Shown here: piece after piece, positions 4,029-18,988 of the stretch
Layout of the letters: each line of letters begins with the position of its first letter
Numbering within the stretch: position 1 is the first letter of the stretch
Source of the DNA: Candidatus Bathyarchaeota archaeon
Lineage (GTDB): Archaea; Thermoproteota; Bathyarchaeia; Bathyarchaeales; Bathycorpusculaceae
Reading direction: 5' to 3'
DNA length: 64,000 nt
NCBI GenBank assembly: GCA_963827165.1
Contig: CAWGZR010000005.1
Coordinates: 96,001-160,000 of the forward strand
Program-made: the position numbers and the translations under genes
Notes under the pieces: model-generated
Database searches by the model: none
The model's input: only the letters and a program-made list of their open reading frames with translations
Told to the model about the DNA's origin: nothing

Positions 4029-4303
4029 TCAGGCAGTATCCTCACGGCAAGCGATCTAGTATATTTTAACGTAAGACTATTAGGAGTATTGATATTAATT
4101 TCAATCTTATCTAATTTCGTCTTACATTCACCTTTACTTTTAACCATTAGTATTCAGAAAGCATATTAATCTAACTGAATACCCTACCTCGGAAATGCCC
4201 TAAACCTTGGCATATCAGAACTAAGAAATTTAGCTTAATTGTCCTTTTACTGAGTACGTCTTAACCTTGAATGTGCTCGGTAATAGCAGCGCACGCTTTT
4301 TGT

Positions 4304-4334
4304 GTCAAGAAATCTTTACAAGAACTCTTTTATC
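4304..4334 (+). promoter_or_regulatory. Conserved upstream element (GTCAA-N6-TTTAC plus TATA-like TTTTAT) of a secreted surface-protein gene
   Basis: 24/31 identical to 55436-55466; both lie 22-23 nt before the ATG of paralogous genes. Confidence 0.6.
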
Positions 4335-4357
4335 GCCAATCCTACCTAAAACTAATT

Positions 4358-5214
4358 ATGAGTAGAATCAGCACGAGTTTCTCATTGCTCTTTATTGTTC
4401 TCTTAGCCGTATCAAGTCTAATGATGGCTAAACCAGCATTTGCTCAAATACCTACGCCTTCGCCTTCACCTGTTCCTATTCCTATACCTACGCCCTCCGT
4501 TCCAACATTCACTGTACAGCTTGTCGGTCCTCCTTACACTGTGCCTACAACTTATTCGTTAAACCAAAGTTCAGGACAGATTGTTGCTCAAATCGGCTAC
4601 ACCGCTGAATATAATAATGTAGAAGTGACAATTAAAAATCAACCCTTTACTTCCTATGTTGATTCATCGGGAAATACCATTAACCTCTATTACAACATCC
4701 AAATAATGGACGACCAAACATCCGCTTGGACAGTCCTCTACAGTCCTGAAAGTTACCCAACACAGTCCATAGATTCCGATTATACCAACATATCAATCCC
4801 TGTGGCGACTGGTCAAAATGGGGGAATAACTATTCCTGTTGATACTCAAACCGATATCCAAGTTCAAGCAATTGATTGGATATATTACCGCAGAATTTAG
4901 TGGCATATACTATCTACTCCACCATATATTGGGGATTACTGGACCTATTCATTTGTTGGTCAAACAGGCAGTTGGAGCTGCAATGCAAACAGTAACCATA
5001 CCTGCGGATATTCCTTTAAGCCCTACCCCAACCCCAACATCCTCAACTTCAACGCTAACTCCAACTCCAATATCAACCTCTTCGTCTATTAGCAGCGCTT
5101 CTTACGCATCTCTTTTATTAATAGCTCTTGTTGTTATCACATTCTTGTTGGCTATCATTATTTTTCTTTCTAATTTATATGAGAAAACGAAAGCCCATTA
5201 ATTTAAGTGAGTGA
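4358..5214 (+). pseudogene. Secreted/membrane-anchored surface protein (paralog of 55489-56286), broken by several frameshifts
   Basis: Signal peptide and PTPSVPTFTV, IKNQPF, YYNIQ and DIQVQA motifs. The continuation LIGY / SFVGQTGSWS / QTVTIP / TM / YMRKRK is split over different frames at about 4870, 4890-4910, 4980 and 5170. Confidence 0.75.
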
Positions 5215-5251
5215 CGCCTAATTTCTTTTATTCTACGCTTTTCAGATTTAA

Positions 5252-5291
5252 GACTTATCTCTAAGTTTGATCAAACTTAAGAACATAAGTC
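5252..5291. repeat. Imperfect 40-bp palindrome upstream of the small ParB gene
   Basis: Perfect core TAAGTTTGATCAAACTTA (5262-5279) with outer arms GACTTAT/ATAAGTC. Confidence 0.8.
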
Positions 5292-5307
5292 GGCTAAAAG
5301 AAGGCTC

Positions 5308-5601
5308 ATGAAAGAACTGGATAAAGATAAAACAATCAGGTTTACCCTTGATTCTATTAAGTTATATGAAGATATTTTGCAAAAACAACAAGCAGATCCG
5401 TGTCACATGAAAAGAGTTAAAGCCCTTGCCAAAGACATATCCAAAAATGGTTTACAAAAACCAATAGAGGTTCTGCATCTCCAAAATGGGGAGTACAAAC
5501 TAATGGAAGGGTATCATCGTTACATGGCTTGTAAGTTACTTGGCTGGAAAGAGATTGAATGCTACGTTAAAGAATCAATCAAACTCTTTTATTATCAATG
5601 A
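5308..5601 (+). CDS. Stand-alone ParB/Srx N-terminal domain protein
   Basis: LAKDISKNGLQKPIEV...LMEGYHRYMACKLLG (GxxR motif). Confidence 0.85.
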   Translation: MKELDKDKTIRFTLDSIKLYEDILQKQQADPCHMKRVKALAKDISKNGLQKPIEVLHLQNGEYKLMEGYHRYMACKLLGWKEIECYVKESIKLFYYQ

Positions 5602-5649
5602 AAAATAGCAGTACTACCAGAACGAGATACTCGGTTAGTGATTAAAGAC

Positions 5650-5832
5650 TTAGGGATTTATTGAATGGTTTTTACCATAATTAGTTTTACCAAAAGTTAT
5701 GCGCCCATGCTTACCTTTAACAAGCTCTGTTATTACTTCCCGTAGTTCTTCTTTAGTTTTGTCTGGTAATGATTCATTGGCTAAATTGTAAGAGGTTTCT
5801 GTATCATCACTATACTTAACTGTTAATCCCAC
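5650..5832 (-). CDS. Small hypothetical protein
   Basis: 60-aa ORF co-oriented with and closely following the upstream element ORF. Confidence 0.5.
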   Translation of the reverse strand: MGLTVKYSDDTETSYNLANESLPDKTKEELREVITELVKGKHGRITFGKTNYGKNHSINP

Positions 5833-5844
5833 AATCTTTTTCTC

Positions 5845-6057
5845 TCATTTTTCATTTATCCATTCGAATTCACGATTTCTGTCGTTGCTTTCGTCTTTTG
5901 GAAGCCTAAAATCGCACATGGGACACGACCAAACAAAAGCACCATAGTAGCCAGCAAAAGGAACGAACGCTTTTTGCCACATTGACTGTCTATTGCTTTT
6001 TCTTATTGGCTTCACCATGTTTTTACATCGTGGGCATTTCACTAATGTTCTATTCAT
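5845..6057 (-). CDS. Small zinc-ribbon protein
   Basis: CPRC...CPMC; purine-rich RBS-like sequence upstream. Confidence 0.65.
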   Translation of the reverse strand: MNRTLVKCPRCKNMVKPIRKSNRQSMWQKAFVPFAGYYGAFVWSCPMCDFRLPKDESNDRNREFEWINEK

Positions 6058-6128
6058 TGTTCTACCGCTTTAGAATTAATTTTCACATTAAACTTATACG
6101 ATTTATGAATCTAAAATTCAGTTAATGC

Positions 6129-7602
6129 CTAACTCCTTGAAAATAGCTCTTTTTTATTTTGGTTAATGCGGTTGGTGATAACAAAATTTCTATTAGCAAT
6201 AGGACCAGTGTTAGAGTGCTTACCAAAATTACTCCATGTTTCACCACTGTTCATATCGTGGATAACTATCCTTGCCCCTGTTGCTGGTTTAATAGGAAAT
6301 AGCTGTTCATCCCAGAAGTTTAGCAATAAAAGAGAGTCTACAAGGTTGTCATAATGGGGATTGCTTTGTTTCTTATAGGACTTCATTTCTTGAATTAAGT
6401 CGTTATATTCCGCTGGTATCTCTAAACCCTGACTCTCTATCGTGTGGCTAAGTTGTTCTTGCATGACCTCTTTGTAATACCGTGAATTGACAGAGAAAAC
6501 TTTGCTCTTACCGTAAGCTTCCGATATGAGGTCAGACCACATGATAGGCAGACTATCAACCTTAACAAGCTGTACTTTATAGAGCTTTAGAAACTCTGCT
6601 ATTTCTGCAACAGCACCGTTAATCTCTTCAAATCCCCATGTCTTACGGAAGAGAACTTTAAGCTTATACTTACCGTTCTTCTCACCGATTGTTAAGGCTA
6701 ATTGGTCTCGGTCAGTGTGTCCAGTTCCACCACCGTCTACACCTGCCCATCTAATGCCACCTTCGCTTAGTACCTGTTCTCTAATAGCTTTGTTAATTTG
6801 CTCTGTGTCCCATAGTAACTTAATGCTGCTCTCGGATATTTCCCCGAGTACATCCCTTTTCCATTCATCTTCCGTCATTATCGTTTTTTTGTTGGTTAAT
6901 TCTTCTTGACTGTGCCAATCACAGTCTATTTAGCTCCACTTGAAAAGAGTAAAATTATATTTCTTAGGGTTTTTGAGTATCTCATTAAACTTAGAATACG
7001 GAGAGCTTGGAGTACCTAAGACTACCAGCTTAATCTTTTTACCGCTAAGATTCCCATAAGCAGTAGATAGTGTTTAAGAAGGCATTAATTCAGCCTCATC
7101 TAAGAAAAGAATGCTCGCACTTGCTCCACGAATACCCTTCTCGGAAGAGGATAATAGCTGCACCTTGCTACCGTTCTTTAAAGAGTAACCGTCTTTAGGG
7201 ATAATGTTGGCTACTCCTTCCCAACTTACATACTGCCTAAGCTCTGGGTTAGAGCTAAAGATGTCTGTTATGTGTTGGTAAACGTAGTTCTCTTTAGCAG
7301 AGACTAAACATACTTGAATCTTATTTTTGAGCGTTAAGTAAATAGCTGCTACTGCACAACATAACGACTTTGCCTGTCTGTCTGCCAGCTGAGATAAGAA
7401 CGTTAGTTAACTCTGGGTTTTCTAATCCCTGTAAGACCTCTATTTGTTTAGCGGTAGGAATTAGCTCTGTAATCTTAGTAAAAAATTCTGTTATGCTGAG
7501 ACTGAGAAGGGTATCACTTTCTATAGCTTTTGCTAAGTTTCCCTCTTTAGCCTTCTTTCGGTTTCTGTAATTCTTTTGTATAATTGCTCTGTCTAATGGC
7601 AA
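6129..7602 (-). pseudogene. Terminase large subunit (ATPase plus RNase H-like nuclease), disrupted
   Basis: Manual translation gives Walker A SAGRQTGK(S), GIRG...ILFLDEA (Walker B), coupling motif LGTP, and nuclease GVDGG...DNLVDS. There is one +1 frameshift at about 7369 and two in-frame TAA codons (about 7075 and 6931). Confidence 0.85.
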
Positions 7603-7638
7603 TAAAAATATCTCCTATTGGGGTTTATTTAAAAAAAC

Positions 7639-7782
7639 TTAGGATTCTGGTTTAGTTTTATCTGGAACGTTTAAAAGATTCCCGTCTGCATAGAGTTTCT
7701 TATAGAAATCGAGATTCTTTTTACTTAAGCCAATTTTGGTTAGAATCTCTTCCTTAACTTCTTCGGGAGTTTTTTTTGTCAT
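7639..7782 (-). CDS. 47-aa hypothetical protein (not in the ORF track)
   Basis: MTKKTPEEVKEEILTKIGLSKKNLDFYKKLYADGNLLNVPDKTKPES; fills the gap before terL. Confidence 0.5.
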   Translation of the reverse strand: MTKKTPEEVKEEILTKIGLSKKNLDFYKKLYADGNLLNVPDKTKPES

Positions 7783-8491
7783 GACTAAACAATCCTTTTC
7801 TCTTCTTGGAGTCTTTTTTAGGCTCTATGCTCTTTCGTTCTGCTCGCTCGTAAGATTCTACTACAGCTTTGTTTATCCAACCACCAGTAGTAGTATCTCT
7901 AACAAAACCGAACTCTTCCATCCCGTAATCTCTTGGATATTTCTTTTTAGCTTCTGGTTGCTTTGGTTTTTGTGCTGTAACTGGTTGCGTTACGTTAAAC
8001 AATTTTCTTATCATTGGGTCATGTATCGGTACAATCTTTAGTATGTAGATGTAATCAACTGTCTCGCCTTGAGTATCCGAGTTCATAGTTCCGACTTTTA
8101 CTTTAGCTGTTGAGTAGTCCTCTGACCATTCTATATCTGAGCTTTTGTATATGCTGCCTTCGTAGAAATCGAAGCGACCATTTCCATTATATCTTAGACT
8201 GTATCGAGCATTTCCATCACTAAGACTTATAGCAATCCCAACTGGCATTGTTGCTACTAAAAACTCGGTGCGTGGCATTAATTGATACTCTGCTATCAGG
8301 TCGTTTAGTCTTTTTATAGCTGTCTTCTGTGCCTCTACCGAGGGATAGATAACGCTCGGGTTTCCTACACTATTTTGGAGAGATTCTATTTCTTTTAGAA
8401 TCTCTCGTTTTTTCGTTTTTAATTGTTCATTATCCATTTTAATTACTTCCTTGTTCTCTTGCTTTTTCGTGATATGAGAACTGTAACACAT
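7754..8491 (-). CDS. Hypothetical protein (N-terminal coiled coil, beta-rich core)
   Basis: 245-aa ORF in the element operon; no motif recognised. Confidence 0.7.
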   Translation of the reverse strand: MCYSSHITKKQENKEVIKMDNEQLKTKKREILKEIESLQNSVGNPSVIYPSVEAQKTAIKRLNDLIAEYQLMPRTEFLVATMPVGIAISLSDGNARYSLRYNGNGRFDFYEGSIYKSSDIEWSEDYSTAKVKVGTMNSDTQGETVDYIYILKIVPIHDPMIRKLFNVTQPVTAQKPKQPEAKKKYPRDYGMEEFGFVRDTTTGGWINKAVVESYERAERKSIEPKKDSKKRKGLFSHDKKNSRRS

Positions 8492-8658
8492 TAACCCTCA
8501 GAGCCTACACGCACAGCAATCTCTTTGTTATGCTTGTTTAGATTCGTGGAGCTATCCCCTTTACAGCCTCTTAATTCTCTAAGTTGTGCTGGCGAAAGTG
8601 TTTGACCGACTACATGCCGTTTGTAGCTATACCCTCCATGATTTGAGTTAGATTTCAT
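8491..8658 (-). CDS. 55-aa hypothetical protein (not in the ORF track)
   Basis: MKSNSNHGGYSYKRHVVGQ...; ATGA overlap with the upstream ORF and TAATG overlap with the downstream ORF. Confidence 0.55.
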   Translation of the reverse strand: MKSNSNHGGYSYKRHVVGQTLSPAQLRELRGCKGDSSTNLNKHNKEIAVRVGSEG

Positions 8659-8867
8659 TGGTGACATAACCCCGAATCACACTGATTTTGAAAATGACGT
8701 TTCATATCCAATTCGCTCTTTGCTTTTGGTGCTGGTAAATCGAATTTAGTTAATAGAGCTATATCTCCCTCTAACTTTGCTATGTTCTTCATTCTTTCTC
8801 GTCTCACTGGACACGTAGAAGAACAACTTTTCTCTGGAAAAGCTCTTTTCTTAATTGTGTGAGTCAT
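8655..8867 (-). CDS. Small Cys-containing hypothetical protein
   Basis: 70 aa, CxxxC motifs, ATGA-coupled. Confidence 0.6.
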   Translation of the reverse strand: MTHTIKKRAFPEKSCSSTCPVRRERMKNIAKLEGDIALLTKFDLPAPKAKSELDMKRHFQNQCDSGLCHQ

Positions 8868-9106
8868 TGTTCCCTACTCCATTGTCTCATTTCTGGATAT
8901 ACTTCGTTTCGTACCCAGACTGGTCTGTTATTATTGGTTGTTTCAATATGCCATGAATAGGCTTCATTGATAGACTCTGCTTCCCTTTCAAATTCTAAAT
9001 AACAACCTATTGAACAGAAAAGGTCTGTCTCTAACTCTGGCTCGTAAAGTTTACCGCATTGAATACATTTCCGTTTAATTACGGCTAAAGAACCCAAGTT
9101 TGCCAT
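8864..9106 (-). CDS. Small treble-clef-type Zn-finger protein
   Basis: CIQC...FCSIGC; TAATG coupling. Confidence 0.65.
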   Translation of the reverse strand: MANLGSLAVIKRKCIQCGKLYEPELETDLFCSIGCYLEFEREAESINEAYSWHIETTNNNRPVWVRNEVYPEMRQWSREQ

Positions 9107-9303
9107 TAGTAAGACCAGCCTCCATAAACGCCCTTAGCATGGTGTTTGTGTAGTTTGTACTTCTGTTTACAGTCTGGGGAACACCAGAGATTATCTTTCA
9201 TGTACGTTTCAAATTCTGCTCCACAAGGACACTTACGAGTTATAATTTCATGAGAAAGATTAGCTAAGATTTCACTCACCATCTTAAAACACCAAACCAA
9301 CAA
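9106..9303 (-). CDS. Small treble-clef-type Zn-finger protein
   Basis: CPCG...WCSPDC; true start probably a few codons downstream (MVSEI). Confidence 0.6.
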   Translation of the reverse strand: MLVWCFKMVSEILANLSHEIITRKCPCGAEFETYMKDNLWCSPDCKQKYKLHKHHAKGVYGGWSY

Positions 9304-9544
9304 AGAACCTTTCTGGGTGTCTGTAGATTTCTTTCCTTAGCTGTCCTATTCCGAGTCTATGATAACATTCTCTAAGGGTAGCATTGTACTCTAATCTCTT
9401 CTCGGTTCTAAACTTCTTTGCTGACTTTCGACACTGTTCGCGCTCTACCTTATTCGCACATGAGAATGAACAATACTTTCGCCTACCCTTTGGGATAGGA
9501 TTATCACATTCTAAACAAGCAGCTTCTTTATTCACTCTAATCAC
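9284..9544 (-). CDS. Small treble-clef-type Zn-finger protein
   Basis: CLEC...RKYCSFSC. Confidence 0.65.
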   Translation of the reverse strand: MIRVNKEAACLECDNPIPKGRRKYCSFSCANKVEREQCRKSAKKFRTEKRLEYNATLRECYHRLGIGQLRKEIYRHPERFFVGLVF

Positions 9545-9726
9545 TAAACACTTGCTGCTCTCTTTGCTACAGTCTCAATCTTTGCTTTGTCTAAATCCCA
9601 ATTATCAAGTGTATCTTTGTCAGGGACTAAGTTATCTGGTAAATTAATATCAAACTCTACTTTGTGTATCTCCCTACATGTTGGGCATTGAACATTGAAC
9701 AGAAATTTATGTTTCTTAACACCCAT
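9544..9726 (-). CDS. Small protein with CPTC motif
   Basis: Start reassigned to ATG 9726 (MGVKK...), TAATG-coupled to the upstream micro-ORF. Confidence 0.6.
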   Translation of the reverse strand: MGVKKHKFLFNVQCPTCREIHKVEFDINLPDNLVPDKDTLDNWDLDKAKIETVAKRAASV

Positions 9727-9851
9727 TAAACAATATCCCCTAATAGTATTCTTCCACACTCACAACAGAGAAACCGTTGTTTCTTTCCCTGTCTGGTAAT
9801 CTGCTTACCAGCCTTAACGATGTGAAGACTGCCACATTGACATTTTTCCAA
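9726..9851 (-). CDS. 41-aa IS1 InsA-like zinc-ribbon protein, copy 2 (not in the ORF track)
   Basis: MEKCQCGSLHIVKAGKQITRQGKKQRFLCCECGRILLGDIV; TTG start, GGGGT RBS, TATA-like sequence upstream; clear paralog of 11692-11823. Confidence 0.8.
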   Translation of the reverse strand: MEKCQCGSLHIVKAGKQITRQGKKQRFLCCECGRILLGDIV

Positions 9852-9990
9852 GTTAGCTACCCCTAATCTATTGATTCATAGAAAGGTATATTAATACTTC
9901 ATGGTACTTCACTATACCCTAAACTTGATTTTTTTAGCTGTAGAAAACTTGGATTCACTATAAAAAGAGTATTGATTGTTCTTTCAGCTT

Positions 9991-10022
9991 CTTATTCTAC
10001 CGTGCTAAGACCGTACAATTAG
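9991..10022. repeat. 13-6-13 palindromic site A
   Basis: CTTATTCTACCGT-GCTAAG-ACCGTACAATTAG. Confidence 0.8.
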
Positions 10023-11668
10023 AGTTTCTTTCTTCCTTTAATGTACCAAGCGAAGCGTTCTAAGGTTTCAGTTTCTTTGAGAGATAATAGTTTATTTTCT
10101 TCTTCGCGGAATGGTTCCCAACCACTCCTAAACTTCCCATATTTTTTAAACAATAAGGGATGAATCTTATTGAAAGCTTTTTTTAGTGATAATTTCTTAT
10201 TTGAGAAGTCGGTAGTCAATTGTTGATGTATTTCTGGAAATATTGTTTTACTGGTTTCTATTAGGAGTACAGAATCGAGTTTTTCTATTGCTTTGTTTTC
10301 TTCTTCAAATGATGGTGGAAGAACCGTGTTTCTAACCATACTATTTTTGATTGGAATCTCTAATAGTTGAATTAATTGTAGTTTTAATGCTCGTATTCTT
10401 TTCTCTTCACTCTTCTGGATAAGCTCAATAGCTTCTTCTTTGATTGGGCTATGAACAAGAACATCTATTTTATGGCAGATATTAGCAAGTTTAGCTATTG
10501 GGTCTGTTGCATAATTCTCGGGGTTAATAGTATCTATTTTTTCTTGCTGGTCTGGATGGGAAACTTTGATATTTTTAATGTAATCTGTGATACGAGCAGT
10601 AGCTTCTTCTTCTGTTAGATATTCTATTGGATAGAATTTTTCTGTATTGTCATTGATGTCGTTTGATACATATTTTTCTGTACCAAATATTTTAGAATAA
10701 TCAGTATGAGCTAATAATAGAGGTTTCCAATCAGCTAAGTTATTTTCTACTAATTTCTTTCCAAGGTCTGTTAAGTAATATTTGTATTTGGCTTCATGCG
10801 ATTCAAAGCTATGTAGATTTTCTCTGCGTATTAAAAGGTTCAATACCAATGTGTTTATTGCAGTATTAAGAGAGTGACTAAAGTTACGAGCATAACCATC
10901 ATTTTTGGCTTTTACTTCGAGAAGTCCTATAACCTCAATGAAATCTGATTGTTTTAATCCTTCTTTGTTTGGTATAGTAAATATGTAAGCTGCTTCCTTT
11001 GTATCATGTTTATAATAATTTTCAAAATAGTTGATGTAAACCAAGAAGGCTTTTTGTTGTAGTGATAATCTATGTGATTTTTCGGCGAACTTTCTTGCTT
11101 TCTCCATCATTCTTTGTTCGGGTGAAATCTTGAATCCCATACGTTCAAATGGGTTTTTTTTAGACTCGGGTTTTACAGAAACATAAGAAGCATATTGTTT
11201 GTTTCCAACTAATTTCCCTTCATATTCGTAATGATGAACGTCTTGCTCGTTCATATCTAATAGGGCTGCTTTCTCCACTGCTGGTAATTCGCTATCGTTT
11301 ACAGAAACAGCAAACTCTTCTTCTGTAAGTGGAGTACGTTTGTGATTAGCAGCACGAGCTATCTTATGAGCTTCTTCTTTGCTTAACCCTTCGTAGATTT
11401 TAGCTTCTAAGGTCTGTTTCTCTGAGTATTCTTTAGTGCCTTTAGTTCTACAGAATCCATCCAGTAGTTGATATTTGTCTCCTGTCTTCAATAAAAGGAT
11501 AGGATAAAGCTGTCCTTCTGATTCGATGCTTTTGGCTAAGTTCTCTAATCTCTTAGGGTTGTAGTCTAATCTGCTTTGATATGTCTCGTCTTTAAGATCT
11601 ATCTTGTCTATTTGGAAATCTGGAACATAAAGAGGTTTTTTACTTGTTTCCTTTTGTGATGCTTTCAA
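10019..11668 (-). CDS. Large ParB N-terminal domain protein with probable winged-helix domain
   Basis: LAKSIESEGQLYPI...LLDGFCR...ANHKRTPL; later wing-like YYLTDLGKKLV. Confidence 0.85.
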   Translation of the reverse strand: MKASQKETSKKPLYVPDFQIDKIDLKDETYQSRLDYNPKRLENLAKSIESEGQLYPILLLKTGDKYQLLDGFCRTKGTKEYSEKQTLEAKIYEGLSKEEAHKIARAANHKRTPLTEEEFAVSVNDSELPAVEKAALLDMNEQDVHHYEYEGKLVGNKQYASYVSVKPESKKNPFERMGFKISPEQRMMEKARKFAEKSHRLSLQQKAFLVYINYFENYYKHDTKEAAYIFTIPNKEGLKQSDFIEVIGLLEVKAKNDGYARNFSHSLNTAINTLVLNLLIRRENLHSFESHEAKYKYYLTDLGKKLVENNLADWKPLLLAHTDYSKIFGTEKYVSNDINDNTEKFYPIEYLTEEEATARITDYIKNIKVSHPDQQEKIDTINPENYATDPIAKLANICHKIDVLVHSPIKEEAIELIQKSEEKRIRALKLQLIQLLEIPIKNSMVRNTVLPPSFEEENKAIEKLDSVLLIETSKTIFPEIHQQLTTDFSNKKLSLKKAFNKIHPLLFKKYGKFRSGWEPFREEENKLLSLKETETLERFAWYIKGRKKL

Positions 11669-11691
11669 AGTTGTTCTACCTCATAAGCCCT

Positions 11692-11823
11692 CTATTCTGT
11701 AGGGTTTAACACTCTGCCACAATCTTGGCATTGATACCTCTGAGTTTTTCCCTTTCTCGTAACCCTAAAACCCATCTTTACGATATGGGTACTTCCACAG
11801 ACGCATTTAGTTGGTTTACTCAC
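11692..11823 (-). CDS. 43-aa IS1 InsA-like zinc-ribbon protein, copy 1 (not in the ORF track)
   Basis: MSKPTKCVCGSTHIVKMGFRVTRKGKTQRYQCQDCGRVLNPTE; GTG start, TTTATAT box upstream. Confidence 0.8.
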   Translation of the reverse strand: MSKPTKCVCGSTHIVKMGFRVTRKGKTQRYQCQDCGRVLNPTE

Positions 11824-11944
11824 GGTCTTACTCTTCCCCAATATAGGTAGGTCTGTTTATAGATATAAAGATTATGGTTACTTCATATAGAATAGACCAT
11901 ACATCCTAAAGAAATATTTGTAGCCTCTCCCCATGACTGTAACT

Positions 11945-11976
11945 CTTATTCTACCGTGCTGTCACTGTATAATAAG
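11945..11976. repeat. 13-6-13 palindromic site B
   Basis: CTTATTCTACCGT-GCTGTC-ACTGTATAATAAG. Confidence 0.85.
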
Positions 11977-12064
11977 GAAATACTATTAGAGATAACAAAC
12001 CTTATTGTTTCATCTCATTAAGATGCAGATCAACCAATGCAAAAAGGGCAACGTTATTCGGTCT

Positions 12065-12097
12065 CTTAATGTAACCTTGCTGTCTATGTACAATAAG
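12065..12097. repeat. Degenerate palindromic site C
   Basis: CTTAATGTAACCTT-GCTGTC-TATGTACAATAAG (same spacer as B). Confidence 0.7.
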
Positions 12098-12521
12098 AGA
12101 ATGATAATAAGCCTATTCTTATTAGACCGTCACGGACTTTCTAATTACTAACTGTTATTTTTTTATTGATGATTTAGCGAGCCTGAAACACCTTACTTCT
12201 ACAGGGAAATAATAAGATAAGTTAAAAGTGTTTTCAATCTTAAGAGATAGGGAAACACCTTACGAATATTATTACTCGGCTAATTACTTGAGGTTGAGGT
12301 CGTATCCCGTTCTTAGTATCCTGAAGCCTTAATGAAGGTGAACGAGCCATTTAGCCACTTTAAACTCTTCCGAGTGACCTTACTTGTTCATTAGACTTTC
12401 TCGCCAATGCATTCTCTACACAATCAAGAAGTAATAGAGCATTGGCATACAAACAATTACTCCTTGATTGGTTAGATATTAACCCCTTTCTCGGCTCACA
12501 TAAAAAGCGTTATGGTTCAGT

Positions 12522-12553
12522 CTTAATGTACCGTGACAGCACAGTATAATAAG
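12522..12553. repeat. 13-6-13 palindromic site D, spacer inverted relative to B
   Basis: CTTAATGTACCGT-GACAGC-ACAGTATAATAAG; its reverse complement is 27/32 identical to site B. Confidence 0.85.
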
Positions 12554-12988
12554 AGTCGTAAGCAAAGGACAGAAGTAAGAGAAAAACAGATTTGTTATTT
12601 TTTATTTTTTATAGTATCCAGTATACTATACTGGATTAGCCGTTTCAAGCATTAATGAAGCATATTTCTGTTTTGTTTGATACTGGTAGGGTTACTCTGA
12701 GGTATTGAGATAAGCAGTATTGATATTGATTTGATGCATGGATGTAGACCCCTTGAAAAGACCATACATGGAGACCAGCGAGACCAGTCTCTTAATAGCG
12801 AGAACCTACCATCCAAGAAACTTAGCGTATAAGCTAAACCTTATTGAATATGAGTTAAAACTGTACTTAACTATTAGTATCCTTGCAAGCGAGTGAAGTC
12901 TGTAAGACGGAAGGAGCGCAGCTATAAGTACAGTTAGTTAAAGCATGGAAAATAATGATTGTTAGTAACAGTTTAGTTACTTGAAAGG

Positions 12989-14089
12989 TTACTCTTCTTT
13001 TAGTATGTCTTCTGCTTGTTTGTCTCTCTCTTCTTGATCGTGTATTATTTCTTCTAAGCTGTAGTCTTTAGCTAATAATCCTCTTTCCTTGAATGCAGTT
13101 AGTAAGGAATTGAAAGCGTATTCTAAGTTGTTGTACTTTTTCTCTAATTCACTAAGTTTCTTAACCTGTTCCTTGCTAATGCCAGAAGCAGCTTGAAAGT
13201 CTATGTTTAGATAATCATTGTAGACTGTAGGGTACTTCTCTTCTATCTCAACTTTGAGCGTCTGTAAGTAAGTTCTATCAGAGACTCCTATAGCCTTACC
13301 GAGAATGAACTTGATTTGAAACTCGTTAAAGCCACATCTGCTTAACCGAGACATCAGCCATTTTCTTATATTGTGGAATCTTAGACCACCAGTAGTTTTA
13401 AGACCGCTATTAACAGCTAACCGAGAAAGCATTTTCTGAATACCATCTGGGGTAAAAGGGAATAGTTTAGGGTTATCGTCTTTTCTTGTTTCAAGGTATT
13501 TAGATAACCATTCGATTGCAAGGGGATTAAAGACCGCTAATCTTGCTTCGCTTGTTTTGCTTCTGGTATCTTCAAAGAAAATAAACTTCTCATCATTTGC
13601 TTTAGCATGTTCAATTAATCGATATACTCTTTCTCTCTCTAATTCTAAGAAACTTGATATTTCCCATCCTAAGCTTGAAGCTGTGGCTATGATTGCTTTT
13701 TCTTGAGTGTCTCCTACTTGGAATAACTGCTTAAGGTCTCCATTAGTAAAAACGTGAGACTCGTTATCAGCTTCAACTTTCCCTAACATGCCTCTTCTAA
13801 ACTTCACGCTTTTATTTATTTGAGCTAAATAAGACCTAACGGCAATAATAACAGCTAAGACGCTGTTCTGTTTTTCACCCTTTGCTAAGGCTTCTCTTCT
13901 ATAATTCATGATTGCGCTCTTAATATCGTCTGGTTCCATTTCTCTAAGTTTCTCTTCACTTAATCCAGTAGCAGCAAAAAAGTTTTGAATTCTGTTCTTG
14001 TACATTCTTCGTGTACTGGGGTTTGAGAATTCGTTTAACCAGCCTTCAATACTTTTGTTTGATACTGGTTTATTCTTTGATTCGCTCAT
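12989..14089 (-). CDS. Tyrosine recombinase/integrase
   Basis: SAM-like N-terminus (STRRMYKNRIQNFF), RSKT, FHNIRK (HxxR), ILGK...RTY catalytic Tyr. Confidence 0.88.
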   Translation of the reverse strand: MSESKNKPVSNKSIEGWLNEFSNPSTRRMYKNRIQNFFAATGLSEEKLREMEPDDIKSAIMNYRREALAKGEKQNSVLAVIIAVRSYLAQINKSVKFRRGMLGKVEADNESHVFTNGDLKQLFQVGDTQEKAIIATASSLGWEISSFLELERERVYRLIEHAKANDEKFIFFEDTRSKTSEARLAVFNPLAIEWLSKYLETRKDDNPKLFPFTPDGIQKMLSRLAVNSGLKTTGGLRFHNIRKWLMSRLSRCGFNEFQIKFILGKAIGVSDRTYLQTLKVEIEEKYPTVYNDYLNIDFQAASGISKEQVKKLSELEKKYNNLEYAFNSLLTAFKERGLLAKDYSLEEIIHDQEERDKQAEDILKEE

Positions 14090-14478
14090 TCGCTAACACC
14101 TTATTTGACACTCTCAATAGATACAGTATGGTTACTTACTTTTAAAGGTTGTTAGATATCAATACTTGTAGTATGTGTATTTAACATCTCAGCAACATAC
14201 GTATAAAAGCTTATAGATATGCTACTGCTGTCAGGGAATAATTTCGAACCATGAATCGCTCAGCATTTGAGAAACATTTTGATTCTTTCTAAAAATGCTT
14301 GTAACGCTTTCATTGTTATCTCGTCACATTTTGTCCAGCCTGAAGTCCTACTAGCAGAATTAAATCATTTGACGTTAATTCGTACATTCGCACCGTTATG
14401 TCTTAGCAGTTTCTTTACCGTTAGAAGTTGAGTTGATACTAAAAAAAAGGAGATGGATTTTTTGTTTTGCTACTCTAT

Positions 14479-17181
14479 TTATGGTTTTCTTCTAAGCAGT
14501 ATCATTGCGAGTATGGCGATTCCCACGATTATTACAATTATTGTTGCAATTCCTATGTACATAACGGCGTTTTGCGTAGCTATACCTGTGAGTGGTGTTG
14601 CTGTTGGTGCAGATGTTGCTGCTGGTGAGGCGGCGTAGAATCCTGTGGAAGCAGTTGATCCATAGTATGATTGTGTGCCAGCAAAGGTTGCGTATACAGT
14701 GTAGTTACCTGCAATGTCAGGTTTCCACGTAAATGAGTAGTCGCCTAAGCTGTTTGTTGTCGTTGAGCCAATTGATCGGTAGTTGTTATTGGAGTCCAAT
14801 ACGTAGAAATTGACTGGGACTCCTGTTATGTTGCTCGGCATTGGCTGCTGCTCGTAAACTGCCTCCATAAACGGTGTCATGCTTGCATCAGAAACACATG
14901 GTAAGCCATTAGGAAAGTTGGCTGCGACTGCATTTTGCTGTGAGCCTGCGGAGATGTCGGTCACTGATCCTGTTACGGTTATTTGAGTGGAAGTTGTTAT
15001 GCCAACATCTGGTGCTGTAACGGTTGTTTTACTTGGTCCCATGCCGAAACCGTATATTTGGTTGTCATAGTCGTTTATCGTTGTCATTACACCGTCTGAA
15101 ATTGCTGGGGCACTCGTAATGTCGAAGCCCAATATGCTCCATGCCAGTTTTCCAGTGGTAGTGTTTATGGCAAGTTCGCTAGCTCCATGGAATAACGGTG
15201 GACTGTACATGTGACCTTCTGGAACGAATAGCATTCCATCAGCGAGTGATCCGCAGGTGAATGTCCAAAGAGGCCAGACTCCATAGGGTGTGTTAGACCC
15301 AGCAGGACCTGATAGTGTGTTAGTATTTGTCTGCCACGCGATCGCGCCTGTGGCCATGTTAATGGCCCATACGTCTCCTCCGAATCCCCACAAGTAAAGT
15401 ACTCCGTTGGCGAGAACTGCTTGATAGCCGCCGATGCTGTCGTAAGGATTGGCGCCGGCCAGACTTGTCGTCCATAGGCTGGTTCCTGTAGTCAAACTGT
15501 AACCAACAAGTGTTGACGTCTCCTCGTTAACTACAGCATAGGTCGAATCTCCGACTGCCGCGATAGATATCCTTGAAAACGGGGTTTCTGTCCTATTAGT
15601 TATCCATAGTTGTGCTCCGGTATTTGCGTTGTAGCCTGCCTCGATTTGGAAGCCAGATTGGAAGAATTGTTCTCCTGTGTATCCTGCATCTGTCATCAGT
15701 ATAATTCCACTATTGATTGATGAAATCGCTAGAGTTCCAGGCAAAGCCGACGCAGATGGTAAAGGAACGCCGTTAAGAGTCGTGGGTAGTGGCACAGTCC
15801 ACATTATCCCAGCTGAGAATTGAATGGTGGATCCCAGCACAGGTCTCCAAGACCAGTTTTGGTAGCCTGGAGCTTGGCCATTAGGGTACAGAATTGCTTG
15901 TGTCGAATTCCACATATTCAAGGTGGGTGCATTTGGATTAGTAGCGTTTACATAGTAGCCAATCAAGTCTCCACTTTGATCTTCAACCAGCGTTAATGGC
16001 GCAAGTCCAGATGCGGCAGGCGCATTGACAACAGTAAGTATAGGCTGTCCAGTCATGGCATCTAGCATTCCATATGTTGCGCCGGTGTTGGGGGGTATTG
16101 TTGGCTCTTGGACCCAAAGGTAAGCTAAGCTTCCGTACTGATTGGGTGAAACATAATCGTATATTTGACCGCATCTAAGTGTCGTTGTGTAAGGAACTGC
16201 TCCTGATGTTGTTAAGCCTCCCGAGGTTTCAAGCAAACCCTGTTGTAGTTGTGGCACGGTATAATTAAGACCCGTGTCGGTCCATAGTGTTTGTCCAGTT
16301 TGTAAGTTTACTGCGGTAATGCCTGCTGGGTCTTGGTTAGAGTTCGGGTACTCGGTGTAGTAGAGAATACCGCTTATTATTACAGGTGCGAATTTGGGTT
16401 CATACTGGGATGTCGAGTAGAAATTGCTCGTGTCGGATCCTCCGAATTCTCCGCCCACTAAGCCTCCGAAAGACTCAGGTTTTGTCCATAGGATGTGAGC
16501 GGATGTTGGCGCAGTAGTGTATGGATTATAGTTTCCGGTAATATTGTACTCGCCTGTGTTGGCAAATGTGGATGTACCTAAACCAAGCCAGTTCCCGCTA
16601 ATTGTATACCATTCGTTGTTCACTGATTCTATTGGACGACTCCAATAGTTTGTTGGAAGCGGAGTTTGGGGTATCATTGGTACTGGCCCTTGTTGCACTA
16701 CAAGAGTGTATGCTAAGCTGGTGCTTGGTTCATAATAATCTCCGATGAATGCCTTTGTTGCGGCAGTTGTTGTGGAAATAAGATTTGTTCCTGCCAACGT
16801 CTGTCCCGGAAAGCTCATCTGGAAAGTGTAGTTGCCAGCTTGACTAGGTGTATAATCTGTATGTGTTCCTCCAGTGTCGTCGGCTGTAAAGGTTCCAAGT
16901 TTTGTAGTGGTTCCATCAGGTAACTTTACCGTTACTGCCAATCCAGTCCATCGATCGCCATAAACGCCGCTGGCTGTTGGTGTCGGCAAACCGAGCCAAA
17001 AGCCAACGTTAACTGTTTGACCAACGCCGGCAGGGTTAGGATTTACTTCAATGTAAGCGTATGTTGGAATGTTCCATGGTGGTGAATGCGCATTTACGTT
17101 TGGTACTAAAATCATTGAACCCGTCATAGAAAGCACAAAGAATACACAAATTGTTATAGCTGCGATTTTGTTTTTCAACAT
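14479..17181 (-). CDS. Cell-surface PQQ-like beta-propeller repeat protein
   Basis: Signal peptide, repeated A(V/I)NxxTGxxxW motifs, Ig-like C-terminal domain, TM anchor plus RRKP. Confidence 0.9.
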   Translation of the reverse strand: MLKNKIAAITICVFFVLSMTGSMILVPNVNAHSPPWNIPTYAYIEVNPNPAGVGQTVNVGFWLGLPTPTASGVYGDRWTGLAVTVKLPDGTTTKLGTFTADDTGGTHTDYTPSQAGNYTFQMSFPGQTLAGTNLISTTTAATKAFIGDYYEPSTSLAYTLVVQQGPVPMIPQTPLPTNYWSRPIESVNNEWYTISGNWLGLGTSTFANTGEYNITGNYNPYTTAPTSAHILWTKPESFGGLVGGEFGGSDTSNFYSTSQYEPKFAPVIISGILYYTEYPNSNQDPAGITAVNLQTGQTLWTDTGLNYTVPQLQQGLLETSGGLTTSGAVPYTTTLRCGQIYDYVSPNQYGSLAYLWVQEPTIPPNTGATYGMLDAMTGQPILTVVNAPAASGLAPLTLVEDQSGDLIGYYVNATNPNAPTLNMWNSTQAILYPNGQAPGYQNWSWRPVLGSTIQFSAGIMWTVPLPTTLNGVPLPSASALPGTLAISSINSGIILMTDAGYTGEQFFQSGFQIEAGYNANTGAQLWITNRTETPFSRISIAAVGDSTYAVVNEETSTLVGYSLTTGTSLWTTSLAGANPYDSIGGYQAVLANGVLYLWGFGGDVWAINMATGAIAWQTNTNTLSGPAGSNTPYGVWPLWTFTCGSLADGMLFVPEGHMYSPPLFHGASELAINTTTGKLAWSILGFDITSAPAISDGVMTTINDYDNQIYGFGMGPSKTTVTAPDVGITTSTQITVTGSVTDISAGSQQNAVAANFPNGLPCVSDASMTPFMEAVYEQQPMPSNITGVPVNFYVLDSNNNYRSIGSTTTNSLGDYSFTWKPDIAGNYTVYATFAGTQSYYGSTASTGFYAASPAATSAPTATPLTGIATQNAVMYIGIATIIVIIVGIAILAMILLRRKP

Positions 17182-17548
17182 TTTTCTTTTTTCTCCTGAA
17201 TTTATTTATCCTGAGAAGAAATAAAATAAATATGGGCTTCTCAGGGCACGTTATTTTTCACAGATTTGGTATAAGTAATTTGCCTAATTTTTTTATCGTG
17301 ATTTAAAGCAAATAAGCGCTATTACTCAATTGATAAAGATACAAAATTAAATGAAAATAGTGGTTTTGCTTCAAAAAATAACCCTTCACAAAAAAATTCT
17401 CGCCGAAGAGGGAAAAAAAAAGGACGACACCCATGAAAGGAGAAAGCGGTCGACGATGGTACAGGGCATAGGCTCAGATTAAGCAAAGCATAAGGAATTA
17501 ATGTTTAGCATTACAGTTTAGAGTGTATGTGTTGTGGGGCGATTGAGT

Positions 17549-18988
17549 ATGAAAGTGACGGTTGCAGTGTTAAGTAAGCGTGGAAATAACGCAGTTGATC
17601 ATGTGGTTGAAGTGCTCAAAGAGTTCAATGAGCAATCCTTTCATTTCGGGATGGTTTCCCCCCGAAAAATCGTAATTGACAAGAACCTTGATCTACTATT
17701 CAGGCAAAGCCCTGAATCTTCAACCGCGGTTGGTTACGCTTCATCAAAACCAGCAGCAAAAGGCTACGAGTTTCTGCAGTTGAAAGAGGCATCGCTTGTC
17801 TTTCAAGGCAAAGTGTATTCGTCAATACCAAAAACCGCCGTTTTGCAGCAGCTTTCCAAAGAACCACAGCACTGCGAAACCATCCTGCAAACATTAATCG
17901 AAAAGGCCGACGGGGACTACTCGTTTCTTATGCTAAAAGACGGCTGGATTGCTACGGGTAGAGACCCAATAGGAGTTCAACCGCTTTATTACGGCGAAAA
18001 CCAAGAAGTAGCAGCTGTCGCCACAAATCGAAATGCACTGTGGAAACTTGGAGTAGAAAACCCAGTTTCTTTTCCGCCCGGAAACCTATGCTTCATAAAC
18101 CGCGAAGGCTTCCAGTTTAAACCGATCAAAAACCTGAGCTTTTCTGAACCAAAACTCATAACCTTGGATGATGCAGCTCAAAAGCTTCAGATCCTAATTG
18201 AAGAATCAATCAAGCGTCGAACACAGGATTTAAAAGAGGTCGCTGTTGCGTTTTCAGGCGGCTTAGACAGCAGCCTTGTTGCTTACTTGGCAAGCAAACG
18301 CGGGTTGAAAGTTAACCTGTTCCATGTTAGCATGGAAAACGAGGCGGAAATCGAAGAAGCCTTCGCTGCGTCAGAACAGCTGAACCTGCCGCTTCAGATG
18401 CATCTATTCAAGGATTCGGATGTGGAGAAAACTCTGCCTAAAGTGGTGGAATTGATTGAGGAGGCTGATCCAGTTAAGGCCAGTATTGGGTTGCCGTTTT
18501 TCTGGGCAGCGGAGGAGGCGGTTGAAGCGGGATTTCAAGTTATGTTGGCTGGGCAGGGCGCGGATGAACTTTTTGGGGGGTACCAACGCTACGTTGCCGA
18601 GTATTGCAAGGAGGGCAGTGAAAAGGTCTTAAAAACAATGTTTAATGATGTGATTAACATTCATTTGAGCAATCTTGAACGTGACTTGAAAGTTACGGGT
18701 TATCATGATGTAGAGCTGAGAATGCCCTTCGCTTCGTTTGATGTTGCCGAGTTCGCTATAAGGTTGCCGATTGAATGTAAAATTGAGCCCAAGCAGGATA
18801 CGTTAAGGAAACTGGTTTTGCGCAGGGTAGCATTGAATGTTGGTATGCATGGTTCGGTTGTGGATAAGCCTAAGAAAGCAGTTCAGTATTCAACGGGCGT
18901 AAATGACGCTGTGAAGCGAGTGGCGAAAAAACGCGGCGAATCCGTCAACGAATACATAGAGAAGCTTTATCAACAGTCAAGGCGCTGA
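17549..18988 (+). CDS. Asparagine synthetase B-like protein
   Basis: RDPIGVQPLYY, SGGLDSS, GQGADELFGGY; no N-terminal Cys. Confidence 0.85.
   Translation: MKVTVAVLSKRGNNAVDHVVEVLKEFNEQSFHFGMVSPRKIVIDKNLDLLFRQSPESSTAVGYASSKPAAKGYEFLQLKEASLVFQGKVYSSIPKTAVLQQLSKEPQHCETILQTLIEKADGDYSFLMLKDGWIATGRDPIGVQPLYYGENQEVAAVATNRNALWKLGVENPVSFPPGNLCFINREGFQFKPIKNLSFSEPKLITLDDAAQKLQILIEESIKRRTQDLKEVAVAFSGGLDSSLVAYLASKRGLKVNLFHVSMENEAEIEEAFAASEQLNLPLQMHLFKDSDVEKTLPKVVELIEEADPVKASIGLPFFWAAEEAVEAGFQVMLAGQGADELFGGYQRYVAEYCKEGSEKVLKTMFNDVINIHLSNLERDLKVTGYHDVELRMPFASFDVAEFAIRLPIECKIEPKQDTLRKLVLRRVALNVGMHGSVVDKPKKAVQYSTGVNDAVKRVAKKRGESVNEYIEKLYQQSRR

Follow-up and report, generated by a model that had tools for sequence, protein, structure and literature searches.

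What is the function of a small family of symmetric DNA sites that lie, in the genome of an uncultured archaeon, next to a tyrosine recombinase gene and around the gene for a ParB-like protein? The question is raised by a 64-kb stretch of contig CAWGZR010000005.1 of a Candidatus Bathyarchaeota archaeon (the window; all positions refer to it), in which the sites, named A to D, are private to one integrated element of 10.1 kb. A sequence-only reading of the window had likened them to lox and FRT sites and had proposed that the inverted pair B and D turns the 545 bp between them into an invertible switch, with binding sites for a ParB-like protein as the alternative. Our analysis favours the latter. 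The sites are probably element-private operator or centromere-like sites, with the ParB-like protein P0002 as their most likely ligand, a reading that we hold tentatively and with slightly less than even confidence.

The window was searched on both strands for the pattern CTTAwTnTACnGT-N6-ACnGTAyAATwAG, allowing up to three mismatches. The pattern occurs at exactly three places, A, B and D, at each of them on both strands and without any mismatch on the forward strand, and it is found in none of 100 dinucleotide-preserving shuffles of the window; the sites are real and far above chance. Each is 32 bp long, has no strand assigned, and consists of 13-bp inverted arms, which fit a core-site-like pattern without mismatches, around an asymmetric 6-bp centre. 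Site A (9991–10022) has the centre GCTAAG, and its right arm holds the TAA stop codon of P0002. Site B (11945–11976), with the centre GCTGTC, lies 104 bp upstream of the longest reading frame of ZnR2, which encodes a small zinc-ribbon protein, and site D (12522–12553) has the centre GACAGC, inverted relative to B and C. The centres of B and D match in inverted orientation, and together these sites form a 35-nt inverted repeat, 86% complementary, with 545 nt in between; A, with its different centre, is not a partner. Over 17 bases, which comprise the left arm plus GCT, A and B are identical, and past these they differ.

Site C (12065–12097), read directly from the sequence, is a decayed, 33-nt copy of the site family, CTTAATGTAACCT-TGCTGTC-TATGTACAATAAG, in which the centre is 7 nt long and includes GCTGTC and each arm has two mismatches; the pattern search missed it at up to three mismatches. 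A half-site with one mismatch, CTTATTAGACCGT, is present at 12118–12130 (+ strand), and half-sites on their own barely exceed chance (29 in the window scan versus 19.1 expected at up to two mismatches). The earlier claim of four sites of this consensus and a half-site, with the tyrosine-recombinase-like layout of inverted 13-bp arms and an asymmetric 6-bp centre next to such a recombinase, is therefore borne out for A, B, D and the half-site, spacers included, and has to be weakened for C, which is no more than a degenerate copy. Of the 13 arm positions, 11 are constant within the family; the other two, 7 and 11, are variable and frequently fail to be complementary between the arms. As RNA hairpins the sites are weak (−7.6 to −10.3 kcal/mol, z −0.9 to −3.0). 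The arm variation and the weak hairpins together argue that the symmetry reflects recognition on duplex DNA and not hairpin formation. No consistent target duplication is seen at the flanks of the sites.

The sites are located at three boundaries between transcription modules. Site D stands ahead of a conserved non-coding unit, about 50 nt past a TATA-like A/T block that is conserved with L024, the sole syntenic relative of the element, found in a genome of the same genus. The half-site, C and B lie within 186 bp (11945–12130) upstream of the ZnR2/P0002 operon, with B upstream of a promoter-like region that is also conserved with L024. Site A lies between the end of P0002, whose stop codon it spans, and the ZnR1 operon, about 140 bp ahead of ZnR1. 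The assignment of these regions as promoters is suggested by their sequence conservation. As to which protein binds the sites and to what effect, we infer that they would be two-fold symmetric protein-recognition sites on duplex DNA, which P0002 would bind as a dimer and which would be used as operators or in a centromere-like manner, comparable to KorB operators or to ParB-parS.

P0002 (10019–11668, − strand) is a protein of 549 aa, predicted to consist of a ParB_N domain, a helix-turn-helix (HTH) domain and a long helical C-terminal part, and it is encoded by a cargo gene specific to this element. It matches PHROG ParB-like families with E-values down to 4.7e-12 and the NCBIfam model parB_part at 1e-8, and its residues 21–125 align with solved ParB/Spo0J chains, running into their HTH domains. 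The HTH domain is assigned to P0002 because two aligned relatives, P0007 and P0008, carry the Pfam domain HTH_ParB (22.9 and 32.6 bits, cut-off 22.6), aligned to P0002 residues ~110–150. P0002 is almost an orphan. A search of 1.84 billion representative proteins yields 191 matches at E ≤0.001, nearly all to the N-terminal 150 residues only, and a collection of 5.8 billion proteins contains two close homologs, P0003 (97% identical, encoded on a contig of 10.5 kb) and P0004 (55%, on one of 1.9 kb). No relatives are found in viral contigs or GenBank phages. Among 400 Bathyarchaeia genomes there is no full-length relative, the eight that match doing so in the ParB_N domain only, and in a genus search with P0004 one of the 119 other genomes matches, again with the N-terminal domain only. 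The protein atlas gives no usable match for residues 130–549, and PADLOC reports nothing for P0002, the L024 cargo or the recombinase. A second protein with only a ParB_N domain (97 aa, 5308–5601, + strand) carries the motif EGYHR and gives weak matches to PD-Lambda-5_A defence models. The junction of ZnR2 and P0002 is covered, without differences, by a 172-nt contig from a peat metatranscriptome library (X6, 11564–11735), which may reflect co-transcription of the two genes, with DNA carry-over as a possible alternative.

The comparison with L024 shows that the site type changes together with the cargo. The two elements share a recombinase (65% identical), ZnR2 (74%), ZnR1 (83%), a 245-aa protein (72%) and the C-terminal part of a terminase (92%); among the small proteins the identities are 38% (71 aa) and 34% (65 aa), and an 86-aa DksA-like protein of the window element is unmatched in L024. 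L024 does not contain P0002 and has two other genes, of 465 and 486 aa, between ZnR2 and ZnR1. Homology between the two elements stops at the ZnR2 stop codon (~11698) and resumes at ~9950, which places site A inside a window-specific cargo block. The sites are absent from L024, and a half-site scan is negative in 11 related loci. At the equivalents of D, B and A, L024 has instead a repeat of 64–73 nt with arms GTTCCCTTTTTTGCA and TGCAAAAAGGGA around a conserved middle, with T6/A6 tracts in both arms and ~35–45 nt between them; its three copies (of which A′, the equivalent of A, lies inside the L024-specific block) are all direct. A strict pattern for this repeat, applied to both genomes, matches a single one of the three copies and has no other match. 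The window–L024 alignment reveals, at 11995–12052 (− strand) between C and B, a decayed ortholog of this repeat (GTTGCCCTTTTTGCA...), whose presence indicates that the window-type sites are additions of this lineage. The window site type thus co-occurs with P0002, the cargo gene that has been swapped in.

The family was also sought more widely. Beyond A, B and D there is no member elsewhere in the 3.13-Mb genome (14 contigs). Among 400 other Bathyarchaeia genomes one has a match with two mismatches, and a backwards control pattern matched two genomes; viral contigs contain no exact match. A palindrome-family scan of 86 loci gives no pair of the window type, and simple palindrome scans of five same-genus loci, with recombinases 33–51% identical, give no related sites. 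Three palindromes in another locus (L021) were dropped since they lie inside a 1524-aa open reading frame (ORF) with tandem repeats, and a search of the related loci for recurring exact 9-mers was not used because of its noise.

Several observations weigh against P0002 as the ligand. The 13-6-13 geometry and the identical GCTGTC centre of B, C and D, in both orientations, are what an Xer-like recombinase needs; a dimeric HTH protein needs neither, although recent copying could also explain both. A site of 32 bp is twice as long as parS, Noc and KorB sites. The ParB_N match of P0002, at 26.0 bits, is 0.3 bits below the Pfam cut-off of 26.3, and its sequence DGFCRTK aligns where a solved ParB (7bnk) has GERRWR; the GERRxR cytidine triphosphate (CTP) motif is thus missing and CTP-clamp behaviour of P0002 is doubtful. 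A ParA-like or P-loop partition ATPase is not seen in the five ORFs that were scanned among the seven element ORFs of at least 100 aa (the other two being 120 and 101 aa long). The structure model of P0002 is too poor for use (mean predicted local distance difference test score, pLDDT, 44.9; predicted template modelling score, pTM, 0.26). Finally, the comparison is with one relative, and the site type co-varies equally with the 65%-identical recombinase and with the small proteins of 34–38% identity. The earlier alternative of sites for a ParB-like protein fits the comparative data better than inversion does, with P0002 as the putative ligand.

The segment between B and D (11977–12521, − strand) is, as had been described, a non-coding stretch of 545 bp bracketed by the inverted pair; it contains no ORF of at least 50 aa, the longest being 48 aa. 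In L024 a conserved counterpart aligns with it at 68% over ~430 nt and lies in the same orientation with respect to both flanks. The alignment supports 42 predicted pairs, three of them with compensatory changes, and a 7-bp stem, CCAATGC/GCATTGG, is kept around a diverged loop. A hairpin motif of 74 nt (12290–12365, − strand; 12 pairs, three with compensatory changes) is common to three mobile elements, with copies in L024 (11731–11803) and in L143 (9770–9842). To judge from the conserved stems and from the recurrence of this hairpin in a third element with three of its 12 pairs covarying, the segment is a functional unit. It could be an origin, or else a structured RNA, for which the G-U pairs on the strand of the genes suggest transcription in that direction. 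A covariance model of the hairpin matches three of 120 genomes of the genus, which are its training sequences, and nothing in 89 further loci; Rfam gives no match for 9500–14500 at E ≤1. The third element, L143, is an unrelated one of 7.2 kb in another genome of the genus, bounded by exact 24-nt direct repeats (7132–7155 and 14366–14389), one of which overlaps the start of an integrase-like ORF. Iteron-like direct copies of AGTAAGGT(G/C) occur in the segment at about 12378, 12262 and 12195 (− strand) and in L024 at about 11443, 11710, 11830 and 11952, the last copy and its flanks (24 nt) being identical in both elements. A conserved 21-nt string of the segment was also met in two viral contigs and was taken as chance, there being no other similarity, and a gapped pattern of that string has no match in viral contigs.

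Sequence data from public runs were inspected for rearrangements of this segment. All were available as short Logan contigs; the best run contains a fraction of 0.29 of the sampled words, and fragments of 151–312 nt cover parts of 11349–12932. The fragments across B (X2, 11839–11989; X3, 11945–12095) and across D (X1, 12501–12657) show the reference arrangement, at very thin cover, and two of these three have less than 31 nt on one side of the site. No inversion, deletion or strand-changing joint between sites is listed among the fragments, which are too thin to count either way. A joint from 12667 to 12880, with 477 other letters between, was set aside: it belongs to a contig of 1147 nt, one of whose two pieces shows 12 differences, and comes from a relative. 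For the invertible switch there is no positive evidence and, in the comparison with L024, some evidence against it, and the claim should not go forward without evidence from reads.

The ends of the element were located by comparison with empty sites. Its G+C content is 0.34–0.38 (~4–14 kb) against 0.42–0.50 around it. The left flank was searched in the genus and matched in 112 genomes, ten of which were compared with the window. All ten have an empty site, in which window position 4070 (4052–4070) joins ~14180 (14172–14180), the flanks overlapping by ~6 nt in most of them; the inserted element is therefore 4071–14179, with most genes on the − strand. The junction repeat TTTAAC, of 6 bp and without assigned strand, is found at 4065–4070 on the left and at 14180–14185 on the right and represents either the crossover or a target duplication. 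A different inverted motif, the exact 11-mer AGTATTGATAT, is found close to either end: at 4085–4095 on the + strand, 15 nt in from the left end, and at 14156–14166 on the − strand, 14 nt in from the right end and upstream of the recombinase gene. Both copies are part of ~25-nt terminal inverted repeats, which are imperfect. One more exact copy (12716–12726, + strand) lies between the recombinase stop codon and site D, and a copy with one mismatch at 9888–9898; with up to one mismatch there are four matches versus 0.9 expected. In L024, AGTATTAGAAT occurs at two equivalent places beside the recombinase gene, one of them (11347–11357) being the equivalent of 12716–12726 and the other that of 14156–14166, with five matches versus 0.5 expected at up to one mismatch. 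AGTATTGATAT does not resemble the window-type palindrome CTTATTnTACnGT. The terminal motif co-varies between the elements and flanks the crossover, and it could be a separate candidate site of the recombinase or a regulatory motif. Terminal inverted repeats with a 6-bp repeat would also fit a transposition-like insertion.

Core sites such as loxP/Cre, FRT/Flp and dif/Xer have inverted arms of 11–13 bp around a short asymmetric centre, and the geometry of A, B and D, together with the gene next to them, makes such a use a rival reading. The recombinase, P0001 (12989–14089, − strand; 366 aa), is Xer-like, has no arm-binding domain, and conserves R176, H239-x-x-R242 and Y274; its best NCBIfam match is the archaeal XerA (E 7e-15, below the cut-off), and a search with the recombinase profile gave no meaningful match to a solved structure. 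Were B and D core sites of P0001, the segment 11977–12521 would be an invertible switch of a non-coding RNA or origin. Their shared centre in opposite orientation, the position of D 436 bp beyond the recombinase stop codon and the conservation of the segment as a functional unit would fit such a switch, yet we regard it as rather improbable. In L024 the segment keeps the same orientation to both flanks without any such sites, and with flanking repeats of its own that are direct; the fragments across B or D, thin as their cover is, have the reference arrangement; within the segment, both C and the half-site have decayed, and the centre of A is a different one; and the element junctions carry another inverted motif. 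Moreover, flipping would not switch ZnR2/P0002, as their promoter-like region, which L024 shares, is located outside the segment. The same geometry could serve P0001 in other ways, namely in multimer resolution of an excised circle or in integron-like capture of cargo, A having come with P0002 and A′ with the L024 cargo. In each element the cargo block has at its end a site of the kind that recurs elsewhere in the same element, A and B diverge after 17 shared bases as a hybrid site would, and within the cargo block, 14 nt away from A, there is a copy of AGTATTGAT. However, the left border of the cargo swap is the ZnR2 stop codon and not a site, D and its L024 counterpart D′ differ beside a conserved unit, which does not suit sites that travel with cassettes, the ~35–45 nt between the arms of the L024-type repeats is too long for any duplex core site, and a replicon with several sites of identical centre would undergo deletions. 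Such non-inverting uses are distinctly improbable. Even taken together, the two forms of recombinase core site remain doubtful, and a lox-like use by an Xer-like recombinase that would amount to an archaeal mobile-element inverton or an integron-like cassette system has little likelihood, as the evidence weighs against both.

The remaining rivals keep the sites apart from recombination. They could be operators for another regulator of the element, such as the 71-aa or 65-aa zinc-finger proteins or the 86-aa DksA-like protein. One site or cluster per module boundary, with L024 repeats at equivalent places, would suit such a regulator, these small proteins are the least conserved backbone genes, and the 86-aa protein has a DksA-like zinc-finger match; but the searches that were run recognised no DNA-binding domain in them, and the position of A inside the cargo block, overlapping the P0002 stop codon, would go unexplained. 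We consider this unlikely. Lower still is the probability that the sites act as nucleic-acid structures, i.e. as terminator or processing hairpins, or that they are functionless small mobile palindromic insertions. Archaeal termination signals are oligo-T runs, and the T6/A6 tracts in the arms of the L024-type repeats, the location of the sites between transcription units, and the presence of the window-type sites in or beside older repeats are compatible with these ideas, which are nevertheless very unlikely in view of the weak hairpins with mismatches at fixed positions, the lack of copies elsewhere in the genome and of consistent target duplications at the flanks, and the lack of an Rfam match. 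The preferred reading is that of binding sites at module boundaries, with P0002 as the candidate ligand.

The rest of the element is compact. On the − strand the recombinase gene is followed by 1.15 kb without ORFs, ZnR2, P0002 and ZnR1, and then by several small zinc-finger ORFs, the 245-aa ORF and a split large terminase subunit. ZnR2 (11692–11841, − strand) is a 49-aa zinc-ribbon protein with an IS1/IS1595-type Zn-binding domain (NF050000, 32.2 bits, cut-off 28), and ZnR1 (9726–9851, − strand), the first gene after site A, is its 41-aa paralog. Both proteins consist solely of this domain, and each is encoded by the first gene past a site and a conserved promoter-like region, in an arrangement that looks like a duplicated site-promoter-ZnR module. 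The large terminase subunit occupies two ORFs in the window (6129–6878 and 7321–7602, − strand) and is intact in L024 (491 aa, 17291–18766). The L024 terminase has no relative in viral contigs, and among phages it matches only T4-type terminases (22–27% identity). No match to a capsid or portal family is found among the ORFs scanned, and the element may be satellite-like or decayed proviral. It sits between an SMC gene and a gene for a PQQ/Ig-like surface protein.

The wider family of the recombinase was surveyed by scanning a metagenome collection with an alignment of four recombinases, from which 80 loci of 36–67% identity were kept. In none of these do the non-coding unit, the zinc-ribbon genes, P0002 or the terminase of the window recur. 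One of them, L082, contains an array (1535–2354) of at least ten short palindromes of the type TAGGGAAATTTTCCCTA, which starts ~230 bp past the recombinase gene. L082 and L087 are 97% identical up to base 1305 (the recombinase stop codon being at 1304) and unrelated beyond it. The array is absent from L087 and from L079, whose recombinase regions are 97% and 91% identical to that of L082, the divergence setting in just past the stop codon. Palindrome arrays in this family are accordingly linked to the module downstream, not to the recombinase. Many of the metagenome contigs with a recombinase gene (L045–L057 and others) begin 160–290 nt upstream of that gene, and several are 8–11 kb long, which points to breaks of the assemblies at the attachment site and to contigs that represent whole elements. 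A remnant of the 3′ end of a related recombinase gene with downstream sequence occurs on another contig of the same genome (L033, G000:C10:210089-210657).

The sites can be compared with several known systems. With loxP/Cre, FRT/Flp and dif/Xer they share the layout of arms and centre, an Xer-like recombinase ~0.4 kb away and an inverted pair with the same centre. They differ in that the sparse public contigs show no recombination product and in that a decayed copy, a half-site and a copy whose centre deviates belong to the family. In addition, L024, with its 65%-identical recombinase, lacks the sites, and the element junctions carry another motif. In the ParB-parS, Noc-NBS and plasmid RK2 KorB systems the sites are 13–16 bp long, and KorB operators lie upstream of several transcription units. 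The likeness is in palindromes spread over a mobile element, clustered by a gene for a ParB_N and HTH protein and placed ahead of several units; unlike these systems, the sites here are 32 bp long, P0002 has DGFCRTK and not GERRxR, there is no ParA or KorA partner in the scanned ORFs, and P0002 has an additional helical part of ~400 aa that belongs to no known family. AspA-ParB-ParA of pNOB8 is the segregation system of an archaeal plasmid, and the present case resembles it in being a mobile element of an archaeon in which a palindromic site precedes the operon for a ParB_N-domain protein; in contrast, no AspA-like or ParA-like gene is present here, and the ParB-like protein itself carries the HTH domain. 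Bacterial invertible promoters (invertons) likewise have inverted repeats that bracket a few hundred non-coding bases beside a recombinase gene, but here the promoter region of the neighbouring operon lies outside the segment and only one orientation is seen.

Bathyarchaeia are abundant, uncultured archaea of sediments and soils; to our knowledge their mobile elements have barely been described and the lineage is without genetics. In the main text of PMC10848311 the terms ParB, inverted repeat and satellite do not occur. The locus offers an integrative element of 10.1 kb whose ends are cleanly defined and for which empty sites serve as a control, a family of protein-recognition sites that is private to it and stands at its module boundaries, a near-orphan ParB_N and HTH protein as their candidate ligand, and a conserved, apparently structured non-coding unit. 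On the present evidence, these are binding sites of an ordinary kind, borne by a mobile element in an unusual host. If the sites were recombinase sites after all, they would document programmed inversion or cassette exchange in an archaeon, which is rare; if they are ParB-like operators, they and their protein would constitute a compact protein-DNA recognition system that is testable in vitro.

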